Source: Candidatus Pacearchaeota archaeon
Lineage (GTDB): Archaea; Nanobdellota; Nanobdellia; Pacearchaeales; GW2011-AR1
Direction: 5' to 3'
Assembly (NCBI GenBank): GCA_041649755.1
Contig: JBAZMK010000005.1
Location: 8,597 to 72,596, forward strand
DNA length: 64,000 nucleotides
Under the pieces are notes generated by a model, which was given only the letters and a program-made list of their open reading frames with translations, ran no database searches and was not told the origin of the DNA. A program made the translations under genes and the position numbers. Below are positions 1 through 21,816 of the stretch, in pieces; positions within the stretch are counted from its first letter, which is position 1; each line of letters begins with the position of its first letter.

Positions 1-573
1 AACCTAAATAAAGAGGGGATTTGTGTTTTGTAAGTTTCAATTTGATTAAACGCATTCATAACGGTTGCTTCTGGATCAGCAGGATTTTTTAGTTCAAACA
101 AGACTAAGGGCAATCCATTAACAAATAGTATTACATCAGGTCTCCTATTATAGTTTTCTTCAATTATTGTGAACTGATTCATAGATAAGAACTCGTTGTT
201 TTTAATATTATCAAAATCTACAATAAAAACTGGCTTGTGTTTTATTTCTCCTTTCTCTCTAAAAGAAACAGGAACTCCATTTACAAGATAATCATGAAAA
301 CTTTGATTATTAGATATTTGATTTTGACTATCTGTCCTAATTATTTTTTTAACAGCTTCTTCTATTGCATCTTTTGGAATTTTAGGATTTATTCTTTCAA
401 GAGCCGAACGAAGCCTATCAACTAAAACAACATCAGAATACTTTTCTCTTTCACCGTTTCCTTCTGGAGCTGGTGCAATATTTGGAGCATAAATATATTC
501 ATAGCCTTCACTTTGTAGAAACTTTAATGCTTCTTGTTCTATATGATCTTCAGTTATAATGTTTGATGGCATG
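1..573 (-). CDS. hsdR: Type I restriction enzyme R subunit (HsdR), N-terminal fragment; gene continues beyond window start
   Basis: Reverse translation from ATG at 571-573 gives MPSNIITEDHIEQEALKFLQSEGYEY...RPDVILFVNGLPLVLFELKN..., the classic HsdR N-terminal nuclease region. Not in the ORF track because it is truncated by the window edge. Confidence 0.8.
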
Positions 574-858
574 TTATTTTTTTACTTCCTCTCTTAATTT
601 TAATAATTCTTTCATTTCATTTATATGGTGTTGGATTCTTTTCTCTTTATACTTTACCATCTCCTCTATATAAGCCCATTTATTTTTTTGAATATCAAAT
701 TTTTTACTAGCCTTATCAACAATCAATTCTCCTCTTTGCTTCATTTCATGTACTGCAAGTTTTTCTGCAACATTGTAAATCCTTTCATAAACAGAGTCAA
801 TTTTACCTTGAAGGAATAATTTCTGTATTTTTATTGGTAGTATATCTATTTTGCCCAT
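574..858 (-). CDS. Hypothetical 94-aa protein between hsdR and the 564-aa gene
   Basis: ORF tightly packed inside the type I RM operon (1 nt from hsdR start). No recognisable domain. Confidence 0.4.
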   Translation of the reverse strand: MGKIDILPIKIQKLFLQGKIDSVYERIYNVAEKLAVHEMKQRGELIVDKASKKFDIQKNKWAYIEEMVKYKEKRIQHHINEMKELLKLREEVKK

Positions 859-887
859 GTTTAACTAAGGTTTAATGAGTTTTTAAC

Positions 888-2582
888 TTATTTGGATTGC
901 ATATATTTTTTTATTTGGTGAAAATGTATTTTTTTATTTTTAAGTGCCTCTGAAACCTCTTTCTTATTCATTTTTTTTGGAAACTTTTCTATTAAACAAA
1001 GTATAACATGTTGAGAACAAAAATCAACATCAGCATCTTTGTCATTTAGAGATTTTAATAACAACTCGTAAACTTTCTTATAAAATTTATTAGAAATCGT
1101 TTTTGAATTCTTGATGATATGTGATAGATGTGCAAGGACAAGAGGTTTATTATTTTCATAACCTTCTATGAGATAATCTATGAGTTCTTGAGTCTTTTCT
1201 CCCATTGAATAACTAATATTCTCTGTAAAGCAACCAAACTCCAGAATAAATTTCCTATCTCTTTTCTTTTTAGAATAAGTTTTTAGCACTCCCTTTAACA
1301 AATCATCATACATTTCTGGAAAATCATAAAGATAACTTGCTAGTTCCTCAAAAACATATTTACTCTCTTTGGAGTCCTCGTTTAACTCTTTAAGAGAGTG
1401 TTTAAGATATTCTTTATAATAATCTATAATCGGAGGCTCTGGAGTTAGTAAACTAAAATATATTCGTTCAATATCATAAGAAGTTCTTGTTATTAGAGTT
1501 TCAAAGATTATAGAATAATCCTCTATCGTTTCTTTGAATCCTAATTGGTCTAATATTTTTTTGTATTCTTTTTCATTAAAACCATGTGCTGCACTCGAAC
1601 TCCTAAACTTATTAAGCAATTTCAGAAACTTGGTTCCATCCTCTATTATTCCTTCATTTTGTAAAAAATAATCCTTGTTCTTAAAATTAGTTCCATAAAT
1701 TTTATAATTATAAAAGTTAGTAAACTCATTGGAAATTTTAGAATAAATATTCTTCTCTTTCTTTCTTAAATCTTTAAGGTTTTTTATATTCAAGGAAATT
1801 ATTATATCATGATGCACCTTTAATAAAAGCAAAAATTTTTGTAGCAATCTTAAACTTTTAAGAGGTTCTATTGAATTATTTAAAATGTCTTTTAGTTTTT
1901 TAGGAGTATCACCTTTAAGATATTTTTCTTCAATCTCTTTTAATGCTAATTTCTCATAGGAATAACATAAATTCTTATCTATTTTATTGAATATCTTATT
2001 TATTAACTTTGTATTAATAGATTCCAACAAAAGGATGTTTAAAAAAATAATTCTTGCTTGAAAATCATCAACTGTTGTTTCCTTATTAATTACTTTTTTT
2101 ATATGATTTAGTGCATTTTCCATTCGTGTTAAATCTAATAGTCTCATGTCTTCCACTTTTATGTTTGGATAAAATTTTTTGATGTGGTTTTCTACCCTGG
2201 TATTTGATAAATTCATAAAATGAACCATTCTACGAATGGTATCTCTAAAATCAAAATAACTCTCACCAGCAGGTATTTTTGAAGGAGATATATTATACTT
2301 TTTCCAGTATTCTAATTCTTTGTCAGGCAATCCTTCTCCGAGATCTCCCAAATTGACTGCAATAAATCCTTTAGCTACCCTATAAACTCCCCTAAATATG
2401 CCCCATTTATTTCCAAACAAAACTGTTCCATTATCCCCTATAGTAAAGTCCTTATGAGATTCATATCTTTTTAGTACCTCTTCTTTAAAATACACTTTTT
2501 CTAAAAAACCATCTATCTTATGTTCCGCTGCCTTTTTTGCAGACTTTAATCCATCTTTTGTGATAAATTTGATGTCTCCCAT
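888..2582 (-). CDS. Hypothetical 564-aa alpha-helical protein embedded between hsdS and hsdR; HEPN-like Rx5H motif (FRSSSAAHGF); candidate abortive-infection/defence protein
   Basis: Long ORF, Lys-rich and helical, with no P-loop. An R-x5-H motif matches the HEPN Rx4-6H signature. It sits 2 nt downstream of hsdS. Confidence 0.5.
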   Translation of the reverse strand: MGDIKFITKDGLKSAKKAAEHKIDGFLEKVYFKEEVLKRYESHKDFTIGDNGTVLFGNKWGIFRGVYRVAKGFIAVNLGDLGEGLPDKELEYWKKYNISPSKIPAGESYFDFRDTIRRMVHFMNLSNTRVENHIKKFYPNIKVEDMRLLDLTRMENALNHIKKVINKETTVDDFQARIIFLNILLLESINTKLINKIFNKIDKNLCYSYEKLALKEIEEKYLKGDTPKKLKDILNNSIEPLKSLRLLQKFLLLLKVHHDIIISLNIKNLKDLRKKEKNIYSKISNEFTNFYNYKIYGTNFKNKDYFLQNEGIIEDGTKFLKLLNKFRSSSAAHGFNEKEYKKILDQLGFKETIEDYSIIFETLITRTSYDIERIYFSLLTPEPPIIDYYKEYLKHSLKELNEDSKESKYVFEELASYLYDFPEMYDDLLKGVLKTYSKKKRDRKFILEFGCFTENISYSMGEKTQELIDYLIEGYENNKPLVLAHLSHIIKNSKTISNKFYKKVYELLLKSLNDKDADVDFCSQHVILCLIEKFPKKMNKKEVSEALKNKKIHFHQIKKYMQSK

Positions 2583-2583
2583 T

Positions 2584-3834
2584 TTATTTTATAGGAACTC
2601 TAATCTTTCTAGACATGAGTTTTGGTAATAGGGAATCTCGGAGTTGTGATAGACTTTTAATTTCTTCTTCATTTTGATATTTTAGATTAAATAATCTTTC
2701 TACTAAACTGTCAAACTTCTTAATAATCTTATTTTCAGGAATCAATATTTCATGATCATGAATAGAGTTTCTAGATAGATTCGGAACTGAAGATCCAGTA
2801 TTAACCATTGACATGGTTTTGATAAAATAGTAAAGATACCTTACAAGATTTTGATTTTCTATAGATACATAGTATGTTGTTTCAAGTGGGCAAAATTCTT
2901 TATGCGAATAGTAAACCGAATCAGATCCAATCTTTCCAGCCCTCCCTATTATTAGCCCTGCCTTTTTTATGAAACTTTCGTCATGATAACCACTTAAACC
3001 ACCAGAACCATAAACAGGAATATTGCCTTCTTTTCTATTCCATTCTGGGAGATGCCATCCATATTCTAATTTAAATAATTTAATAGCTTTGTCAACGCTC
3101 CACCCCTTAGGAATCACCCCTAATTCAGACTCAATCATTTCACCACCACTAGACTTGTAAGGTTTTCCTTCTTCGTTTGGAAATTGAAAATCAATAAACC
3201 AATGTTTGAAAAGAGCTTGTCCTATTGCTTCAAGAGTTTTATTCATCTTTTGATTGAGTTCTATTTTATTATCAAGATCTGAAAGAATTTTTGCTATTGC
3301 TTTTTGTTCTGGAAGGGGTGGAAATTCAATTTTAAGATCTCCAATAATTTTAGTTGTTAGACTGCCTCTTGAACTATTAGCATCTGAAACATTTCGGAGT
3401 TCTAAATATCTAGATACTAAATTGTAAAAAAGATACCCCGAATCTAATATTTTGGGATTAGCCCTTAAAGATATAACAGACTGATTAATATGCGTATCAA
3501 TCATGCAATAAGCTGTTTGTCCTCTCGTATATCCTTGACCAGCAGATGCAACAACTACATCTCCTTTCTTTGCTAGTCTTGTACTAGAATTTTTAACTCC
3601 TTCAGGAGTGATTTTTTTAATAGTATCTCTAATAAAAGTTTGACCTGTTTCTCCAGAAGATAACCATCTTATTTCACCATCCCAATATGAAGCTATTCTA
3701 GTATTTGGAGTACCCCCACTAAATATAGTATCTGTAGCTTCATTAAGTTTCATCTCTTCCCAATCTTCAGGAATTTCTCCTATTTCAGTTTGCTTTAATT
3801 TTTCTTTTGTTTTCATTTTCTTTTTACCATCCAA
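2584..3834 (-). CDS. hsdS: Type I restriction-modification specificity subunit (HsdS), two target-recognition domains
   Basis: Central conserved HsdS motif LPEQKAIAKILSDLDNKIE...FKHWFIDFQFPNEEGKPYKSSGG. A second repeat near the C-terminus (LSQLRDSLLPKLMS). Confidence 0.8.
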   Translation of the reverse strand: MDGKKKMKTKEKLKQTEIGEIPEDWEEMKLNEATDTIFSGGTPNTRIASYWDGEIRWLSSGETGQTFIRDTIKKITPEGVKNSSTRLAKKGDVVVASAGQGYTRGQTAYCMIDTHINQSVISLRANPKILDSGYLFYNLVSRYLELRNVSDANSSRGSLTTKIIGDLKIEFPPLPEQKAIAKILSDLDNKIELNQKMNKTLEAIGQALFKHWFIDFQFPNEEGKPYKSSGGEMIESELGVIPKGWSVDKAIKLFKLEYGWHLPEWNRKEGNIPVYGSGGLSGYHDESFIKKAGLIIGRAGKIGSDSVYYSHKEFCPLETTYYVSIENQNLVRYLYYFIKTMSMVNTGSSVPNLSRNSIHDHEILIPENKIIKKFDSLVERLFNLKYQNEEEIKSLSQLRDSLLPKLMSRKIRVPIK

Positions 3835-4324
3835 AATAATTTTTTAATAAATAAGAAGTGATAATTGTTGCTATCATTCCCAATATAAAGGAGATTATAT
3901 AACCTATCCAGTTTCTTTTAATATTCCTTTTTTCAGAATTTATTTTTGATAATATCTTTCTACTAATAGTATCTAGATTGTCCCATAGATCTTCATAATC
4001 ACCTAAGGGTAAATTATTACAATCTACTTTTGATTTTATTTTTTTAAGAGATTTTTCCTCTTCTATAAGAATATCTTTAAATTTCTTTATCTTCCCTTCT
4101 AGATTTATTATAAATTTTAAAAGAAAGGTCTTCCATTCAGACTTACATTTATTATCTATATCAATAGCTTCAGTTTTATTTATATTTTTCTTTGAAGTAT
4201 AATGCTCTATTAGGTCAGAGATATAATCATAGTCTTCTTTGGGTAGATTCTTCTGATAAACTCTATAAAGATTATTCAATGAAATAATATATTGGGTGGT
4301 ATCCATTATTACCCTCCCCACCAA
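3824..4324 (-). CDS. Hypothetical 166-aa protein with C-terminal transmembrane helix, between hsdM and hsdS
   Basis: ORF overlaps the hsdS start by 11 nt. C-terminal hydrophobic segment IGYIISFILGMIATIITSYLL. No known domain. Confidence 0.45.
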   Translation of the reverse strand: MVGRVIMDTTQYIISLNNLYRVYQKNLPKEDYDYISDLIEHYTSKKNINKTEAIDIDNKCKSEWKTFLLKFIINLEGKIKKFKDILIEEEKSLKKIKSKVDCNNLPLGDYEDLWDNLDTISRKILSKINSEKRNIKRNWIGYIISFILGMIATIITSYLLKNYFGW

Positions 4325-4467
4325 TTCCTTTCTTGAGGTCTTACAATATAATAAGCCTCAAGATAAGGGTCGTAATAGATCCTATCCCCCTTTCTTCTAG
4401 CTTTTAATGCATCAGTTTTATTTTTATAATATCTACGCCCATTATAAACAAAAATTTTTCCCATTCC

Positions 4468-6063
4468 CTAAACCCTCCAACCAATGCTTTTCAAATTTTC
4501 TTTAATCTCCTCTTCTAACTTTTCGCTTTCTTTAAATTGCTCTCCTAATTCTTTAGTCAATCTTTCCATCTTCTCATTAAAGACTTCTGGATCTTCTTCT
4601 ACTTCTTCAGTTCCAACATAACGACCAGCAGTAAGGACATATCCATGCTTTTCTATTTCCTCTAACTTAACAGACTTACAGAATCCTGCAACATCTTCAT
4701 ATTTTCCGCCTTCTCCTCTCCAAGCATGATATGTTTCTGAGATTCTTTTAACTTCTTCATCTGTAAGATCCTTATGCCTTCTATCAATCATCACACCATG
4801 TTTTCTAGCATCAATAAACAAAAATTCTCCTTCTCTATCCCTAAACTTATGATTCTTTTTATCTTTTGAAACAAACCATAAACAAGCAGGTATCATTGTG
4901 TTATAGAATAATTGAGAAGGCATAGCAACAATGCAGTCTACTAAATCTGCTTCAATAATGTTTTTCCTTATTTCTCCTTCTCCACCAGTGTTAGAAGATA
5001 AAGAACCATTAGCTAAAACAAACCCTGCAGTTCCATGAGGAGCTAAGTGATGTATAAAATGCTGTACCCATCCAAAGTTAGCATTACCTGTTGGAGGAAC
5101 TCCATATTTCCATCTTATATCTTCTTTTAGCTGTTCTCCTTTCCAATCAGAATCATTGAAGGGTGGATTGGCTAATATGAAATCTGCCTTTAAATCTCTG
5201 TGAGCATCATTAAGAAAACTTCCTTCTGAGTTCCATTGAATATCAGAATCAATTCCTCTAATTGCCAGATTCATTTTACATAGTTTCCACGTTGTTTGGT
5301 TGCTCTCCTGACCGTACACTGAGATGTCACCAATTCTTCCTCCATGACTTTCAACAAACTTTTCACTTTGCACAAACATGCCTCCACTTCCACAACAAGG
5401 ATCAAATATTCTTCCTTTGTAAGGCTCTAACATTTCAACAAGAAGTTTTACAATACATCTAGGTGTATAGAACTGTCCACCTTTCTTTCCTTCTGCATCT
5501 GCAAACTGTCCTAAGAAGTACTCATATACTCTTCCTAACACATCCTTACTCCTGTTTTCTTTATCACCTAAAGCAATAGAACCTATAAGATCTATTAACT
5601 CTCCAAGCCTCTGTTTATCTAGTGCAGGTCTAGCATAATCTTTTGGCAAAACTCCTTTCAAAGAAGGGTTTTCTTTTTCGATTGCATCCATTGCATCATC
5701 AATAATTGTTCCTATCTTTGGTTGCTTTGCATTGCTCTGAAGTTTCTCCCATCTTGCATCTTTTGGAACCCAGAATATATTTTTTGCTTTATATTCATCA
5801 ACGTCCTCCGGATCACCCTGCGGATCATTTTTTATTTCATCGTAAACTTCTCTGAAAGCATCGGAAATGTATTTCAAAAAGATCAAACCTAAGACCACAT
5901 GTTTATACTCTGAAGCATCCATATTGCTTCTAAGTTTATCTGCTGAGAGCCACAGCTTTTGTTCAAATCCCAAGTCTCCCTTATTATTGTTTTTTACCAT
6001 AAATTTAGATATATACCTTTTATAAAAAACTATCGCTATGCCTTCTTTTCTTTTCCAAACCAC
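4468..6063 (-). CDS. hsdM: Type I restriction-modification N6-adenine DNA methyltransferase subunit (HsdM)
   Basis: HsdM N-terminal domain ([32 protein letters not shown]). SAM-binding motif [10 protein letters not shown] and catalytic motif LANPPFN. Confidence 0.9.
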
Positions 6064-6308
6064 AATAAAATTGGTATAGCTTCCTTTTCTTTTTTGATTT
6101 TTCTTACTGCCCTCTCTAAATCTTCATAATCAGGATAGAGAATCATTTTATAATTGAATTTTGAAACCTTTTCTTTAAGTTGAGGAAATTCCTTAATTAA
6201 CTCTTTTTTGAATCTTATCTTATTCCATGCACCAACGCTATCGCCATAAGAGATTTTTCCGTTTATTTCTATTCTTTCTCTTCTTGGTCTTAGCGTTTGT
6301 GTTTCCAT
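6036..6308 (-). CDS. Hypothetical 90-aa protein overlapping the hsdM start
   Basis: ORF whose 3' end overlaps the hsdM start (translational-coupling geometry). No domain recognised. Confidence 0.3.
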
Positions 6309-6457
6309 TAGTGTGAATCACTCTTTTCACACCTCAACACCTCTCGACTTTATAAAAAAGAGAGGACACCTCATTTAAACCCTTTTCAAGAAACTTTGGT
6401 GAAAATACCACAAAAAGACTTAATAAGTGCAAAACCTACCAAAGATTATCAAAAGAA

Positions 6458-6856
6458 GTGAAAATGGAAACAATAGGAAAGATTAAATTCGGAAAGTTTG
6501 AATCGGAAATAAAATCTACGCCAAAAGTAATTAAGTATCTAAAAGAAGAAAATTTAAGTTTAGCAGTTTTAATCCCGAATGCTTATGATTTTTATGAAGT
6601 ACTATTATTTGATTCAATTGATGAAGACGAGGATGGAAAACCTGATAAGAAATTTGGAAATAAATTTGATTTAGTCTATTATGGGATAACTGAGAAAGGG
6701 ATTTGGAACGAAAAAGAGGGTTTGAAGGTTAAAGGATTTAAAGAGAATACTCTTCTTAAAAAGAACATACTCTTCCATTCAGGAACGCAAATAAATCAGA
6801 CTCCAAAAAATCCTAAAAAATCTTTTATGGTAAATTATGCGGTTTTGCAAAAATAA
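6458..6856 (+). CDS. Hypothetical 132-aa protein
   Basis: ORF with reasonable codon usage, immediately upstream of and overlapping the Lrp-like regulator gene. Confidence 0.4.
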   Translation: MKMETIGKIKFGKFESEIKSTPKVIKYLKEENLSLAVLIPNAYDFYEVLLFDSIDEDEDGKPDKKFGNKFDLVYYGITEKGIWNEKEGLKVKGFKENTLLKKNILFHSGTQINQTPKNPKKSFMVNYAVLQK

Positions 6857-7796
6857 AATGGACGAAAAAGATAAGTTAATCCTCTTTGAGCTTTTGCAGG
6901 ATTGCAGACAGCCGACTTCTAAAATAGCGAGAGCAGTTAGATTACCTCAGCAAACAGTTAGTTATAGAATTAAAAAGTTTGAAGATTCTAAAGTTATAAA
7001 GAAGTATACTGCAGATATTAATTATCCTAAACTCGGTTACAGTCGGCACTCTTTGTATCTGGATGTCAAGGGAGTTTCAGCTTCGGAAGTTGATAAATAT
7101 CTCAAAGCGATAACAGATATAAAAGAAGTTAGTTGTTGTTACATGCTTCACGAAGTTAGCCAGTGGAAATTATATGTTTCTGTCTGGACAAAAACCCTCG
7201 AGAGATACGACGAGATACAAACAAAAATAACGAGCAAATTCAAGAAAAAAATAAAAAATTATATTTCTTTTCAGAGCGTAAAATCCTTTACTTATTTTGC
7301 TAAAAGATTAAATCCAAATAAAAAATCATTAATTGATGTCAAAGGAAGTTCAGAAAATGTTGAAATCTCCGACGCTGACTGGAAGTTAATTGAAAAGTTA
7401 AAGAAAAATTCCAAAGTTTCAGCGATGGATTTAGCAAATCATTTCAGAACAAACGCGTCTTCAATTACCCGAAGAATAAACTCTCTTAAGAAAAAAGAAA
7501 TTATCGAAAGATTTTATCCGATTCTTGACGTGAAAAAATTAGGGTATACCGAGTACACTTTTATCACTAGAATTGATCCTTCATACAACAAAGAACTAGA
7601 ACAATTCATAGAGTTCACAAAAAAAGACCCGCGATTCGTTATCATGATTAAAGCAGTTGGTTACGTAAATTTATATTACGCATTTCTTATCGAGGACAAA
7701 AAAGAGTTAAGCGGCATCACTGAGAAAATTCATAAGATTTTAGGAAAGGCAGTTTTAGAAGAATATAAAATTGAAGTTGATGAGATGATTAGTTGA
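6837..7796 (+). CDS. Tandem Lrp/AsnC-type HTH transcriptional regulator
   Basis: Two HTH_AsnC-like segments (DKLILFELLQDCRQPTSKIARAVRLPQQTVSYRIKKFEDSKVI and DWKLIEKLKKNSKVSAMDLANHFRTNASSITRRINSLKKKEII), each followed by an RAM-like region. Confidence 0.6.
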   Translation: MRFCKNKMDEKDKLILFELLQDCRQPTSKIARAVRLPQQTVSYRIKKFEDSKVIKKYTADINYPKLGYSRHSLYLDVKGVSASEVDKYLKAITDIKEVSCCYMLHEVSQWKLYVSVWTKTLERYDEIQTKITSKFKKKIKNYISFQSVKSFTYFAKRLNPNKKSLIDVKGSSENVEISDADWKLIEKLKKNSKVSAMDLANHFRTNASSITRRINSLKKKEIIERFYPILDVKKLGYTEYTFITRIDPSYNKELEQFIEFTKKDPRFVIMIKAVGYVNLYYAFLIEDKKELSGITEKIHKILGKAVLEEYKIEVDEMIS

Positions 7797-7800
7797 AAAA

Positions 7801-8331
7801 TTATCTATTTATTTTCTTGTAAATAATATCCTTATAGTCTTTTCCTTTAGTGAGTGTCGAACCCTTTATTTCGCCCTCTTTTTCATAACTTGATTTTAAG
7901 AGTATTTTTTCAACAGATTTATTCAACTCATGAAAATATGCGTATACCTTAAGATACTTCAAATTATCAAATATGAATGAAGTCATCAATTTTACAGCCT
8001 CGCTCATGTAACCCTTATTCCAATAATCCTTTGCAGTCCAAAAACCAATTTCACCTTTTTTATTTTCTTCATCCAAATCAAAAAATCCAATGACTCCTAC
8101 AAAATCTTCGCTTGCTTTTTCATAAACTCCGAAATGATAAGACTTTTTTTCTTTCATCTTTTTATTGCAACTCCTAATATACATTTTAGCATCTTCTAAT
8201 GACTTTGAAGCCTTATAGGGTCCAGAATATTCGTTTAACTTGGGCTCCTTAGAAAATCTATGAAGTTTCTCAGCATCTTTGTCGCCCAAGGGTTTCAGGA
8301 TTATCTTTTCTCCAACAATTTTAGTTTCCAT
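7801..8331 (-). CDS. GNAT family N-acetyltransferase (RimJ/RimL-like)
   Basis: GNAT fold motifs: GVIGFFDLDEENKKGEIGFWTAKDYWNKGYMSEAVK. Last gene of the minus-strand operon that begins with the rSAM peptide locus. Confidence 0.7.
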   Translation of the reverse strand: METKIVGEKIILKPLGDKDAEKLHRFSKEPKLNEYSGPYKASKSLEDAKMYIRSCNKKMKEKKSYHFGVYEKASEDFVGVIGFFDLDEENKKGEIGFWTAKDYWNKGYMSEAVKLMTSFIFDNLKYLKVYAYFHELNKSVEKILLKSSYEKEGEIKGSTLTKGKDYKDIIYKKINR

Positions 8332-8373
8332 TTTAAATAAAAGGATTTTATATTTAAAGGCAATTCTTTTTAA

Positions 8374-8820
8374 TTATATCGAATCGCTTTTATTTTTTAA
8401 ATAATCTTCAATCAACTTAACTTTTTCTTCTCGACCAATTGACTTATAAAATTCAAGAGCACATTCTAAGGGTAGAATTGGAACCTCTAATTCACCCCAG
8501 TTTATTATTCTTACCTCATCAAAATAATTTTTATCTCGATCTCCATAGCAATTAATTTCAACTTCAAAACCGTTTATATCGCAAATTAATGAAGGACCTT
8601 TTATCTTATCGCTGTAGAAATCTTTCGTAATTAAATCTTTTAATGCTTCTCTAAAAATCTCAATTCCTTCTTCATTGGTTGTTATATCTAGGTCTCTAAT
8701 TGAAACATCAAGACCCTGAATCATAAGATTGGCACTTCCTTCTAATTGCCAGACAGGTTTTTTATCCCTTAGCCTTTCTAGGGTAATTTTTAAAACCTCT
8801 CTAATGTCTTTTTCTTCCAT
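8374..8820 (-). CDS. Minimal nucleotidyltransferase (Pol-beta superfamily, ANT/LinB-like)
   Basis: hG[GS]x9-13DhD signature: EGSANLMIQGLDVSIRDLDI. Size ~150 aa, typical of MNT/aminoglycoside-lincosamide NTases. Confidence 0.55.
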   Translation of the reverse strand: MEEKDIREVLKITLERLRDKKPVWQLEGSANLMIQGLDVSIRDLDITTNEEGIEIFREALKDLITKDFYSDKIKGPSLICDINGFEVEINCYGDRDKNYFDEVRIINWGELEVPILPLECALEFYKSIGREEKVKLIEDYLKNKSDSI

Positions 8821-8844
8821 AAAGTTATATTGTAAAGAGGTTTA

Positions 8845-9579
8845 TTAATCTTCTCTAAGGATATCTGCTAATTTCTTCTTAATAGCTTTTTTTTGTTTAA
8901 ATGTTCCGTCTTCTCTTTTCTCAAAAAGAATATATAATTGGGATGCTCTTGCCATTAACCAACTATTTATGTCTTGAACTATTCCATCATAGCTAAATTT
9001 AATGCTTTCTTTATAGTTCGAAATAATTTCTTCTTTTTTCTCTGGACTTGAAATTATTATTGAGGCAACATCTCTTGCAGGATGCCCCAAACCTCCAAGT
9101 TCAAAATCAAAGTAATAATTCTGTCCTTTAAAAGTCACCATGTTTTTTTGTTGTAAATCTCCGTGAAGAAGAGTCTTTAGTTCACGATTGAGTCTAACCT
9201 CCGAAAGTTTTCTTTTAACAAGTGAGCTCAACCCATGAAATAAATTAAGATTTTCAAAAACATAAGAAGAGACTTCACGAATATCATGGTGAATAAAAAT
9301 TTTATTATCTAAAGGATTCTCAAGAAAATAAGAATGAACTTTTGCCCATTCTCTAACTGCAAGACCCACGTCTTTTTTTCCAGTTTCAATAAAAGATGTT
9401 TGGAGTTCTAATCCGTCAACACGATATATTTGTGGAGTTCTAACCAAAGGAATTCTCTGGAATAAATCATAAAAGAATTCCTCCCTCTTTAAGAAAATAG
9501 GCTTCTGATGTGTCTTTGAAACAACTTTACTTCCATCAACTTCATAAATTCTCGAGGTATTTCTATTTAATTCTTCCAT
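8845..9579 (-). CDS. Aminoglycoside-phosphotransferase-fold (APH/choline-kinase-like) kinase
   Basis: Catalytic loop HGDLQQKNM (HGDLxxxN) and DFE metal-binding motif (YYFDFELGGLGHPARDVA). Confidence 0.7.
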   Translation of the reverse strand: MEELNRNTSRIYEVDGSKVVSKTHQKPIFLKREEFFYDLFQRIPLVRTPQIYRVDGLELQTSFIETGKKDVGLAVREWAKVHSYFLENPLDNKIFIHHDIREVSSYVFENLNLFHGLSSLVKRKLSEVRLNRELKTLLHGDLQQKNMVTFKGQNYYFDFELGGLGHPARDVASIIISSPEKKEEIISNYKESIKFSYDGIVQDINSWLMARASQLYILFEKREDGTFKQKKAIKKKLADILRED

Positions 9580-10453
9580 TTTCTTCTGTTAATAAAATAA
9601 CTGAATCTTGTTTGTCTTCTTTTCCTGGAACAATTGATTTGAATCTTCTTTCCAGGTAGTTGAAACCAAATCTTCTAAAAGTTTCTTGTCTTAGTTCACT
9701 TCTATTAATCAACTTTCTATTTTCACTAAAACCTTCTCTTGTATCATAAACATATGCTGCACAAATAATTCCTCCAAGAGTTAAATGCTTTCTTAAAGGA
9801 ACGAGAATCTCCTCACAGAAAGAATCTAAATAATTAGTTTCTCCAGGAAATAGATCTTGAGAATAATCCGCCAAGTTAGAAAGAAGGATGACCTCAAAAT
9901 TATCTTCTAACTTAGAAGTCAGATCTCTAACATCTGAATTAATTAATTTAACTCTTCCATTTCTAATATTAATCCGGGTTCTAATATAATTAAAATCGGA
10001 ATGCAAATAAAGATTGCAAACAGTTCTTAATTCATTTATATCAAACCTCTTATTAAATAACTTAGATTGTCTTATTTGTCTACCATCTTTTTTATATTTC
10101 TTATAGAGACTATCAAAAAAACTTACGCACTCTTCAGACAAGTTTCTTTTTAAACCCTCATAAATTCTGTGGTCCATCGTTCTTTTGCTTCCTGTAAAAA
10201 AATAATCTTTAAAATCTCTTATATCTAAATGCTGTAAAGCTTTAATCTTTAATTCGGCGAATAATAAAGCAAGACGATTTATATCAAAACCAACAACACT
10301 TTTAGCTCCAAAAAAGAAAGGATTGATTACGTGGTCTCCAGAGCCAATAACAGTCAACACATTTTTCCCTTCAAAACCTAACTCTCCCATATATTCTGCG
10401 AGATTTTCTGTTGTAAAAGGGTATACTTTAGATCTTTCTCCAAATGAAGGCAT
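9563..10453 (-). CDS. SAM-binding Rossmann-fold protein (methyltransferase/aminocarboxypropyl-transferase-like, DUF3419-like)
   Basis: Motif I-like VLTVIGSGDHV and an acidic post-I strand (VVGFDIN). Overlaps its neighbours on both sides. Confidence 0.45.
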   Translation of the reverse strand: MPSFGERSKVYPFTTENLAEYMGELGFEGKNVLTVIGSGDHVINPFFFGAKSVVGFDINRLALLFAELKIKALQHLDIRDFKDYFFTGSKRTMDHRIYEGLKRNLSEECVSFFDSLYKKYKKDGRQIRQSKLFNKRFDINELRTVCNLYLHSDFNYIRTRINIRNGRVKLINSDVRDLTSKLEDNFEVILLSNLADYSQDLFPGETNYLDSFCEEILVPLRKHLTLGGIICAAYVYDTREGFSENRKLINRSELRQETFRRFGFNYLERRFKSIVPGKEDKQDSVILLTEENGRIK

Positions 10454-10454
10454 T

Positions 10455-10955
10455 TTAAATTTTTTTGGCTAGAAAAATAATTATCTTATGTTGGTGCATA
10501 TCTTCCCCATGTTTCTTAGATAAACAATCGTGATTATGGATTATTTCCCAGCCAAAGTACAATTTATTTAATTCCTCTTTGTTTGGATAAAAATGAATTT
10601 TGTCATTCGATTCTTCTTGTGACATACAAATTAAAAAGTGGAATCCTCCTAAAATAGTGTTTTCCTGCATTTTTCTAATTAGGTTAGAAGCTTCTTTAAT
10701 TTCAAAAAAATGCAAAATTCCAGATCCAATAATTAAATCATATTTAGTTTCAAACTTAAATTTAGAAAGGTCTTGTTGAATAAATTTAAAATTCTCGGGT
10801 TGCTCTGCTATCCTTTCTTTATCCACCCCTGTAACACTAATTCCTTTTTCAATAAATATTTTAGAAAACTTACAGTTACCACAGCCTAAATCTAGAACCT
10901 TTGAAGGATCTAGCTGTTTTATAATATCAACGATTATTGGTTTGGCTGGTTGCAT
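10455..10955 (-). CDS. Class I SAM-dependent methyltransferase
   Basis: Motif I VLDLGCGNCKF with an acidic motif II (VTGVDKE). 166 aa. Confidence 0.75.
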   Translation of the reverse strand: MQPAKPIIVDIIKQLDPSKVLDLGCGNCKFSKIFIEKGISVTGVDKERIAEQPENFKFIQQDLSKFKFETKYDLIIGSGILHFFEIKEASNLIRKMQENTILGGFHFLICMSQEESNDKIHFYPNKEELNKLYFGWEIIHNHDCLSKKHGEDMHQHKIIIFLAKKI

Positions 10956-12033
10956 TTTCTATATACCTATCCTTTAGATCAGAAGGTTTAACTAAGTTTC
11001 TAAAACACATAGGATCCTTTGCCATGTAATCTCCAGTTGTCGCATAAGCTATAGCTCTGCATCCCTTGCAATGAGAAACATATTCACATCCAGTATCTTT
11101 TTTTAATTTTTTTAAATCCCTTAAATTATGCATTACTTCCTTTTCAGTTATAAGGCTGACCAGCCCCTCACTAATGTGACCTATCTCAATGGGAAGTCTT
11201 CTACATGGATAAACTCTCCCATTAGACAGAACTGAAATTCCGGAATACCCTGCACCACATCCTCCTAAAAATTTTCCAGTATCCCTTGAAGTTCTTTTCA
11301 AAGGGTCATCACAATGCATTAAGTGCCATAATACTTCTGTTTCTAGCAATCTTATTTTCCCTTCGTATTTCTCTTCTAATTTTCTTTGATCACCATATAT
11401 TTGGTATAAACCTTCTGCATCAATAAACTCCGGATCTCTTAGCCCTAAATCTTTTCTTGGGACGTAAGACTGTATTCCAAAAACATCTGCTCCTGCATCG
11501 ATAGAATCTTTTATTGCCTGTTCAATGTGATTTTTATTTGATTGCATCGCAGTAAAAGAAATTGTTACTCCAATCCCCACATCTCTACAATTTGCTATGC
11601 CTTCCATAGCCTTATCAAAAGCATAGTGTCTTTGTCTAACTTGGTTATGTCTTTCCTTGTCTCCATCAATAGAGATTTGTACTCTTTTAATTCCTCTTTC
11701 TTTTAAGGCTCTAGCTTTATCAGGAGTTATGAGAGTTCCATTTGTCAAAAGTTTTGTTGGAACTTGGAATCTTTGGGTATATTCTAATATATCTAATAGA
11801 TCTTTTCTCAAAAGAGGTTCGCCTCCAGAAATATTAAATCTAGGAATCATTGACCACCTTTGTGTTGTTCTAACAAGATCGTCTATCATTCCAGTAACTT
11901 CGCTAAACCCCATTAAACAAGATTCTTCTTGCTTATGTTCTTCTTGCCCTTCTCTAGTATGATAACAATGCTTACACCTAAGATTGCAGTCATTCGTAGA
12001 GTCCCATTGAATGAATATTTGTTTTTTCGTCAT
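10927..12033 (-). CDS. Radical SAM enzyme with C-terminal SPASM domain (peptide-modifying maturase family)
   Basis: CNLRCKHCY is a CxxxCxxC rSAM cluster. C-terminal Cys arrays: CGAGYSGISVLSNGRVYPC, CEYVSHCKGC and a further Cys in MAKDPMCF. These are SPASM/twitch auxiliary-cluster ligands. Confidence 0.85.
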   Translation of the reverse strand: MTKKQIFIQWDSTNDCNLRCKHCYHTREGQEEHKQEESCLMGFSEVTGMIDDLVRTTQRWSMIPRFNISGGEPLLRKDLLDILEYTQRFQVPTKLLTNGTLITPDKARALKERGIKRVQISIDGDKERHNQVRQRHYAFDKAMEGIANCRDVGIGVTISFTAMQSNKNHIEQAIKDSIDAGADVFGIQSYVPRKDLGLRDPEFIDAEGLYQIYGDQRKLEEKYEGKIRLLETEVLWHLMHCDDPLKRTSRDTGKFLGGCGAGYSGISVLSNGRVYPCRRLPIEIGHISEGLVSLITEKEVMHNLRDLKKLKKDTGCEYVSHCKGCRAIAYATTGDYMAKDPMCFRNLVKPSDLKDRYIENATSQTNNR

Positions 12034-21656: not shown

Positions 21657-21816
21657 TGCTCCCACCGGGATTTGAACCCGGGTCTCCGCCGTTCTCCAAT
21701 GAATCTCAAAGAGATTATCGGTAGTGGTTCAAGCGAACCTGAAATTTATTGTCTCACCGACTAAAATTTCCCACCTCTTGAGAGGGCGGTATCCTTGGCC
21801 TCTAGACTATGAGAGC
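21657..21816 (-). tRNA. tRNA-Glu(CUC) candidate with ~87-nt intron at canonical 37/38 position; no encoded CCA
   Basis: Exon 1 (21816..21779) is GCTCTCATAGTCTAGAGGCCAAGGATACCGCCCTCTCA. Exon 2 (21691..21657) is CGGCGGAGACCCGGGTTCAAATCCCGGTGGGAGCA. The 7-bp acceptor pairs GCTCTCA/TGGGAGC, the T-arm is CCGGG-TTCAAAT-CCCGG, and the anticodon stem CCGCC/GGCGG forms only after the intron is removed. Loop is CUCUCAA. Isotype and intron boundaries need tRNAscan confirmation. Confidence 0.5.

Follow-up and report, generated by a model that had tools for sequence, protein, structure and literature searches.

The window analysed here is a stretch of 64,000 nucleotides (nt) of contig JBAZMK010000005.1 (positions 8,597 to 72,596), part of a metagenome-assembled genome (MAG) of Candidatus Pacearchaeota in the DPANN archaea. 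Its positions 1-6000 hold a type I restriction-modification (RM) operon on the minus strand. Between hsdS and hsdR of this operon lies a gene for a protein of 564 amino acids (aa), which we name X564 (NCBI WC494_03145, hypothetical) and whose helical domain carries a highly conserved R-x5-H motif. In our estimate the chance is about even that X564 is a self-contained effector of the abortive-infection (Abi) type with a HEPN-like RNase site, which rides in the RM operon.

Results

The type I operon

On the minus strand the gene order is hsdM, a 51-aa gene, a 160-aa gene, hsdS, X564, a 94-aa gene and the start of hsdR (Table 1). The core of the operon is hsdM, hsdS, the lineage-specific 94-aa gene and hsdR, and there are two intergenic cargo slots. 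A previous reading of the DNA, made from the sequence only, had placed a type I operon with embedded uncharacterised genes here, and the family scores agree with it. The three inserted genes of this sequence-only reading are real, one of them starting so as to give 160 rather than 166 aa, but a fourth, the 51-aa gene, had been overlooked.

The three RM genes are readily recognised. HsdM has an N6-adenine methyltransferase domain and an HsdM_N domain (PADLOC MTase_I, 1.2e-226). HsdS has two target-recognition domains, seen as two stretches of Methylase_S (PADLOC Specificity_I, 3.9e-102). Only the N-terminal 190 aa of HsdR fall within the window and they also match TIGR00348 hsdR (1e-37) and PADLOC REase_I (1.9e-47), while the orthologues that are 50-71% identical are full-length and have ResIII/SWI2_SNF2 domains.

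The intergenic distances from hsdM to hsdR are, in order, 3, 2, 7 (or an 11-nt overlap), 1, 29 and 1 nt, and with such short gaps one transcript for the operon is plausible. The 11-nt overlap of the sequence-only reading arises at the junction of the 160-aa gene and hsdS only when hsdS starts at TTG 3834. With ATG 3816, which is the more likely start, the junction is a 7-nt gap. The gap between hsdS and X564, given as 2 nt in that reading, is 1 nt.

At the other end, an open reading frame (ORF) of 531 aa from GTG 6063 includes hsdM, but GTG 6063 is probably not the true start, because the alignment with the orthologues begins only at residue ~23 and ATG 6000 is preceded by a TATA-like box. As this box lies ~26 nt before ATG 6000, it suggests a leaderless transcript beginning at hsdM, which would leave the upstream 90-aa ORF outside the unit.

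Table 1. Coordinates of the operon genes, of the X564 domains and motif and of the putative promoter in the window
Feature	Position	Strand	Remarks
hsdR, first 190 codons	572..3	minus	ATG 572..570; runs past the window start; Pfam HSDR_N 8.5e-46
94-aa helical protein	858..574	minus	DPANN-specific, accompanies hsdR
X564, 564 aa	2582..888	minus	Beta-rich N-domain, helical R-x5-H domain and C-terminal alpha-solenoid
X564 residues 385-564	1430..891	minus	ARM/HEAT-like alpha-solenoid, confined to the 564-aa family
X564 residues 113-380	2246..1443	minus	Helical HEPN-like domain; conserved E/D173-x3-R177, D/E187, N190, R327, H333
X564 R327-S-S-S-A-A-H333 codons	1604..1584	minus	Candidate catalytic R-x5-H motif; translation checked
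X564 residues 1-110	2582..2253	minus	Beta-rich domain; conserved F32, V36, L37, Y40, W60, G79, D80, E89, W93
hsdS	3834 (TTG) or 3816 (ATG)..2584	minus	Pfam Methylase_S, two stretches, 4.9e-31
160-aa coiled-coil protein	4306..3824	minus	C-terminal hydrophobic membrane helix; 160 aa in the NCBI annotation, 166 aa from TTG 4324
51-aa strongly basic protein	4464..4309	minus	Between hsdM and the 160-aa gene
hsdM, 510 aa	6000..4468	minus	From ATG 6000; Pfam N6_Mtase 1.3e-112, HsdM_N 3.4e-26
TATA-like box TTTTTATAAAA	6019..6029	minus	Candidate archaeal promoter, read from the sequence
90-aa ORF	6308..6036	minus	Reality uncertain; 5' of the putative hsdM promoter; probably outside the system

X564 and its family

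X564 has 27 full-length homologues of 556-567 aa with 38-78% identity, found in DPANN MAGs, Methanolobus, Methanococcoides and other Methanosarcinales. Scans of genomes and metagenomes added further loci, up to 80% identical and including one in a bacterial MAG. Beyond this close family, an exhaustive search by profile brought up 448 representatives of clusters at E<=1e-3, 66 of them at E<=1e-10, that share X564 residues 25-370, so the superfamily counts at least 448 clusters at 50% identity. Most of these proteins are ~540-650 aa long and match X564 residues ~25-370 with their C-terminal half, and all are annotated as hypothetical. Among the relatives, one is fused to an N-terminal AbiEi and another to GmrSD_N.

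Structurally, the AlphaFold2 (AF2) model of X564 from a 22-sequence alignment has a predicted local distance difference test (pLDDT) of 87.8 and a predicted template modelling score (pTM) of 0.75. A truncated model of the helical domain has 89.3 and 0.88, respectively. Conservation with the distant ~540-aa relatives is highest in the N-terminal domain, whose strands are those of the AF2 model. In contrast, the ARM/HEAT-like solenoid is absent from these relatives. With the full model, Foldseek retrieved importin-alpha, CAND1 and a TOG domain from the PDB (E 0.02-0.09, probability up to 1.00), all of them matching the C-terminal third only.

The family is new, being absent from Pfam, NCBIfam, PADLOC, PHROGs and the PDB. 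X564 itself has no match in the first four. In PADLOC its sole match was a spurious one to PDC-S09 (E 0.03), ten relatives had none, and no HEC or PDC model was matched. The Pfam scan of 82 distant relatives placed no domain over the region shared with X564. Profile searches of the PDB sequences (profiles A1 and A4) returned nothing beyond a lectin and designed coiled coils, all at E>0.3.

The R-x5-H motif

Judged from the alignments, the R-x5-H motif is the most conserved feature of the X564 helical domain. It reads FRSSSAAHGF (R327...H333), as the sequence-only reading had noticed. The bare R-x4-6-H pattern occurs twice in X564 against 1.2 matches expected by chance, which is not significant, and therefore only its conservation, tested afterwards, carries weight.

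This conservation is strict. Both R327 and H333 are invariant in 22/22 close homologues, A332 and G334 are invariant too, and H333 is the sole invariant histidine of the close family. In an alignment of 97 sequences of the shared module (~17% mean identity), the arginine is 97% and the histidine 98% conserved, with a spacing of x4 in 11, x5 in 56 and x6 in 27 sequences. The residue after the arginine is S in 57, N in 18 and T in 7 of the 97 (S/N/T 85%), and X564 has S. Upstream, a second conserved motif reads E173-F174-x2-[R/Q]177, where E173 is 78% conserved and the position +4 is R/K in 38% and Q in 43%; position 187 is D/E in 99%.

In the AF2 model, R327 is in helix 318-330 and H333 in the loop 331-336, which is followed by helix 337-346, and the truncated model agrees. 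According to Anantharaman et al. (2013, PMC3710099), the HEPN motif lies at a helix end and the loop that follows, its R and H have a spacing of x4-6, and R is followed by a polar residue, as a rule N, D or H. HEPN domains also have an upstream acidic residue in helix 2 near the motif, often as E-x3-[KR], and frequent inserts between helices 2 and 3 (PMC3710099). X564 shares with them the conserved R-x4-6-H and its modelled position at the C-terminal end of a helix and the following loop.

Several results weigh against reading X564 as an HEPN-like effector. None of the HEPN families in Pfam, PADLOC and NCBIfam matches X564 or the 82 distant relatives even at E<=1. With the helical domain alone, Foldseek found nothing significant and no HEPN in the PDB (best E 0.28, TM-score <=0.28) or BFVD. 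When its profile was aligned by hhalign with those of two small putative HEPN proteins from sister operons, the alignments ran motif on motif but were weak (P~0.02-0.03). The residue after R is mostly S and not the typical N, D or H. Moreover, the defence context is common but not general, as several X564 homologues have ordinary genes for neighbours (chemotaxis, eIF2-gamma).

An HEPN fold or family, the RNase signature of which the sequence-only reading had seen in the motif, was not recovered by Pfam, PADLOC or Foldseek against the PDB. As Foldseek retrieved no HEPN structure, HEPN membership is unproven and we call the domain HEPN-like.

X564 may instead be a protein of defence islands or mobile elements whose helical domain is not HEPN, has a fold unlike the solved structures and uses its Arg and His for another chemistry or for ligand or phosphate binding. 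The confident model of this domain without any structural neighbour in the PDB speaks for it, as do the absence of HEPN profile matches in all 83 proteins scanned and the weakness of a short R...H motif alone as a classifier, given the chance rate per protein. However, HEPN families are notoriously hard to detect across families, and several features of X564 and its relatives jointly fit the HEPN definition closely: R and H are strictly conserved at a variable spacing of x4-6, R is followed by a polar residue, the motif is at a helix end and loop, and acidic positions lie upstream. We regard this alternative as unlikely, although it is the strongest of those considered.

Genomic contexts and the question of RM coupling

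Informative and distinct loci of the X564 family number ~19. In 7 of them, namely the window and the comparison loci labelled L012, L026, L027, L030, L037 and L040, X564 follows hsdS directly. In three loci the next gene is hsdR: L012 has it at full length, in L027 it continues up to the end of the contig, and L026 retains a remnant. In the window the 94-aa gene comes between X564 and hsdR. Hence X564 recurs on the same strand inside a multi-gene defence system, which is the mark of embedded candidates, and this recurrence is in line with the sequence-only reading.

The L026 operon is the closest full-length relative of that in the window, with X564 78% and HsdM 80% identical. Its hsdR (6440-6655) is a remnant of 62-71 codons followed by unrelated genes, and its hsdM, hsdS and X564 are intact.

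The other contexts vary, and in most of them X564 stands alone. One X564 homologue comes after a type III-like RM system and another lies by an integrase. Distant relatives were found on a conjugative element beside VapC and near a BglII RM system with a transposase. On plasmid pPma4326F of P. syringae pv. maculicola ES4326 (L041, 5905-7485), WP_007250370.1 is the first gene after gmtY/gmtZ/gmtX. This hypothetical relative of the X564 core module is cargo of a gamma-mobile-trio (GMT) island, a kind of island reported to be rich in defence genes (10.1101/2023.03.28.534373).

In Methanolobus tindarius DSM 2278 (L001, 355-20365), the homologue of X564 is flanked by a type I RM operon and by an element with KAP NTPase, Cas1 and PolB. 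This RM operon contains hsdM twice, and an unrelated 583-aa gene of its own separates hsdS from hsdR. On the other flank the KAP NTPase comes first and then Cas1 and the family-B polymerase, a casposon-like arrangement.

A 204-207-aa protein, or the C-terminal part of a 357-aa one, is encoded downstream of X564 homologues at L003 (11702-12316), L008 (9698-10321) and L011 (2383-3456). We rejected it as a recurrent partner of X564, as it is limited to a non-RM subclade and has no family match. It may be a lineage-specific partner in that subclade.

Could X564 be coupled to the restriction enzyme in the manner of PrrC, kept inactive by contact with HsdMSR and set free as a suicide nuclease once restriction is inhibited by a virus? 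Its position resembles that of prrC, between hsdS and hsdR with gaps of 1 and 29 nt, and the embedding after hsdS recurs. Such logic has been proposed generally for RM-linked HEPN genes (Anantharaman et al., PMC3710099). However, ~12 of the ~19 informative loci have no hsd genes adjoining the homologue, and X564 is intact beside the hsdR remnant in L026.

Moreover, X564 has no Walker A motif ([AG]x4GK[ST]) and no ATPase family match in Pfam, PADLOC or NCBIfam, and so lacks an ATPase or P-loop regulatory domain. Without a P-loop it is neither PrrC nor RloC, just as the sequence-only reading had it. PrrC is almost exclusively embedded in RM operons (10.1101/2024.01.29.577857), which the X564 family is not. 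In a neighbour-joining tree without support values, a non-embedded subclade nests inside the main embedded clade and the embedded L037 is far away. We therefore consider PrrC-type coupling improbable, and the label "RM-coupled" given in the sequence-only reading is doubtful.

The mostly non-RM contexts, the intact X564 beside the hsdR remnant and the tree together suggest that X564 and its homologues are autonomous and mobile modules of one gene, which often end up in RM operons and do not depend on them as PrrC does.

Sister operons and two cargo slots

Other DPANN MAGs, metagenome contigs and a single MAG with the label Elusimicrobia contain orthologous operons, whose HsdM is 71-80% and HsdR 50-71% identical to those of the window. 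In particular, HsdM is 73-80% identical to HsdM of L012, L020 and L026, and the HsdR range covers the full-length proteins of L012, L019, L020 and L024. Aligned with each other, the operons show a conserved core and two variable positions, between hsdM and hsdS (slot 1) and on the hsdR side of hsdS (slot 2).

Slot 1 holds the 51-aa and 160-aa pair in the window. It holds a 156-aa TIR protein (TIR_2, 2.6e-17) with a C-terminal hydrophobic transmembrane helix in L012, a 174-aa protein with multiple transmembrane helices plus a 164-aa PD-Lambda-3_A homologue (4.9e-25) in L020-23, and a 337-aa plus a 223-aa gene in L024. In L026, it holds a 177-aa RiboL-PSP-HEPN-like protein (3.3e-5, below the Pfam cut-off; motif ARNKVAH) and a 360-aa peptidase-like protein.

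Slot 2 is where X564 sits in the window and in all six comparison loci with embedding. It is empty in L020-23 and holds a 199-aa protein with a weak AbiV match (7e-5) and an FRDGLFH motif in L024/25. In L019, three small genes and a 1099-aa Dsr1-like protein (PADLOC Dsr1, 8.5e-197) occupy it. The match of this protein (2627-5926) to Dsr1 begins only at profile position 319, and it apparently has no SIR2 domain and a different N-terminus of ~200 aa.

The same slots in sister operons thus hold recognised defence genes, and this context argues strongly for a defence role of the unannotated cargo, X564 among it. Homology between the cargo genes of different operons was considered and rejected, the cargo proteins being unrelated to each other. 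Flanking repeats as a signature of cassette exchange were likewise rejected, with only AT-rich chance matches around the cargo.

On a contig binned as bacterial (L012; DHVG01000002.1, 'Elusimicrobia bacterium UBA5214'), positions 3682-11788 carry the same operon, with HsdM 76-77%, X564 59% and HsdR 59% identical. Either the whole operon was transferred from an archaeon to a bacterium or the contig is mis-binned.

The least probable explanation is that the inserts have no antiviral role and are selfish addiction cassettes or fillers particular to the lineage. In its favour, all four are annotated 'hypothetical', some X564 homologues lie among housekeeping genes and the 51-aa and 160-aa pair occurs also away from RM systems. 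Against it, the X564 family keeps its full length, at 38-80% identity, in DPANN and Methanosarcinales and also in a bacterial MAG, its core module extends over at least 448 clusters, the sister slots hold bona fide defence genes, and AbiEi and GmrSD_N occur in fusions with relatives.

The small genes

For the 94-aa protein we found 25 homologues, 71-114 aa long, and all those with a named source are from Pacearchaeota or Nanoarchaeota. Its gene is immediately 5' of hsdR (overlap or <=1 nt) in 4/4 distinct operons carrying it, and besides the window it precedes hsdR at L020-L023, L024 and L025. It is absent from the operons L012, L026, L027 and L019. It thus goes with hsdR, as an accessory gene of one DPANN sub-lineage, and is not an X564 partner. 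It may have a so far unrecognised role in these type I enzymes, as an accessory or a regulator.

The 160-aa protein has two homologues, 58% and 49% identical. The copy in L019 is directly before hsdS; the C-terminus of the 51-aa protein is seen there at the contig edge, so that the pair is again 5' of hsdS. The other, in L018 on a Thermoplasmata contig, is a 161-aa protein (49%) preceded by a 52-aa ORF that is 68.6% identical to the 51-aa protein, with no RM system nearby. Since the pair is kept together in L018 without an RM system, the comparison of these loci marks the 51-aa and 160-aa genes as a conserved, independent gene pair.

The 94-, 160- and 51-aa genes were each tried as a partner of X564 and rejected, as none adjoins the X564 homologues elsewhere. 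Hence the inserts do not form the one module of the sequence-only reading, the 94-aa gene being linked to hsdR and the 160-aa gene belonging to a separate pair.

The 90-aa ORF has no homologue in any related locus and a single weak PHROG match (0.0027). The 94-, 160-, 51- and 90-aa products had no meaningful family match in the Pfam, NCBIfam, PADLOC and PHROG scans. Elsewhere in the window, 21657-21816 on the minus strand match the Rfam tRNA family over 160 nt (46.2 bits), unreported by ARAGORN, and this is probably an intron-containing archaeal tRNA.

Discussion

How X564 may act

As a self-contained Abi-type effector, X564 would work by its Arg-x5-His site, which by analogy with other HEPN enzymes may be a metal-independent RNase centre that needs homodimerisation. 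The beta-rich domain, conserved over the superfamily, may bind the substrate or the trigger and gate the nuclease. The ARM-like domain, specific to the 564-aa family, could recognise a viral component in the way of the DSR-type repeat sensors.

Placement in the operon would bring co-transcription with the restriction enzyme. The resulting defence phenotype would then be layered, with DNA restriction first and RNA cleavage and growth arrest second.

A broader proposal goes beyond the single protein, and we put its chance at somewhat below even. X564 and its ~540-aa bacterial and archaeal relatives would constitute an unrecognised and widespread family of defence effectors, built on a strongly derived HEPN-like R-x4-6-H domain that is joined to the beta-rich domain and is missed by profiles and Foldseek. 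The DPANN type I RM operons would be two-slot carriers that exchange such effectors, a compact layered immune locus for genome-reduced archaea.

What the locus offers

Archaeal immunity is poorly catalogued, that of the DPANN especially. X564 is a good candidate, as yet unproven, for a new gene of antiviral defence. Experimentally, R327 and H333 are the two obvious residues to mutate, and the family has bacterial relatives in tractable hosts, for example WP_007250370.1.

Should the HEPN assignment prove right, X564 would represent a further clade of RM-linked HEPN proteins with a new arrangement of domains. Should it prove wrong, the conserved Arg/His site would instead point to an unknown activity of a helical domain that is novel in structure. 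In addition, the orthologous RM operons with differing slot cargo are a comparison set to be mined by guilt by embedding, and this includes the 51-aa and 160-aa pair and the 94-aa protein.

Comparison with known systems

The prrC gene lies between hsdS and hsdR in EcoprrI. Both PrrC/EcoprrI and RloC resemble X564 in that a gene with R-x(4-6)-H lies between hsdS and hsdR of a type I operon (type Ic for PrrC), and they share the proposed logic of a second-line defence targeting RNA. However, they have an N-terminal ABC/Rad50-like ATPase with Walker A and no similarity to X564 in sequence or profile. The domains flanking the motif-bearing domain of X564 are the beta-rich N-domain and the ARM-like C-domain instead. 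Unlike PrrC, the X564 family is mostly outside RM operons and survives the loss of hsdR.

The single-protein HEPN Abi effectors (ApeA, AbiJ, AbiV, AbiU2 and HEC-08/DUF3644) also combine unknown sensor domain(s) with a helical R-x4-6-H domain. Like X564, they are stand-alone genes often embedded in multi-gene defence operons, several of them in RM or Hma systems. In HEC-08, mutating the motif His abolishes defence (10.1101/2024.01.29.577857). X564 differs from these effectors in that none of their Pfam or PADLOC profiles matches it and Foldseek retrieves no solved HEPN structure. Its HEPN-like domain contains very long helical inserts and has a central or C-terminal position, and its host is a DPANN archaeon.

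The DSR1 and DSR2 effectors similarly join an effector domain to alpha-solenoid repeats that could bind a viral protein, and a Dsr1-like gene fills the slot of X564 in the sister operon L019. In contrast, X564 has no SIR2 domain and no significant similarity to them (hmmsearch negative), and its solenoid is much shorter at ~180 aa.

At the operon level, TgvAB in VPI-2 of V. cholerae (PMC11411939) and the PADLOC guilt-by-embedding candidates (10.1101/2024.01.29.577857) are alike in that same-strand genes interrupt hsdM/S/R and the cargo varies between related operons. The window operon differs from them in that its cargo is not GmrSD-like and has no HEC or PDC match, two slots are used at once and the host is DPANN.

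HEPN genes embedded in RM operons comprise at least 16 clades (PMC3710099), and both these genes and guilt by embedding are already established (PMC3710099; 10.1101/2024.01.29.577857). The kind of system is therefore already known. Besides the family itself, the architecture of X564, the DPANN setting with two cargo slots and the hsdR-linked 94-aa gene are new.

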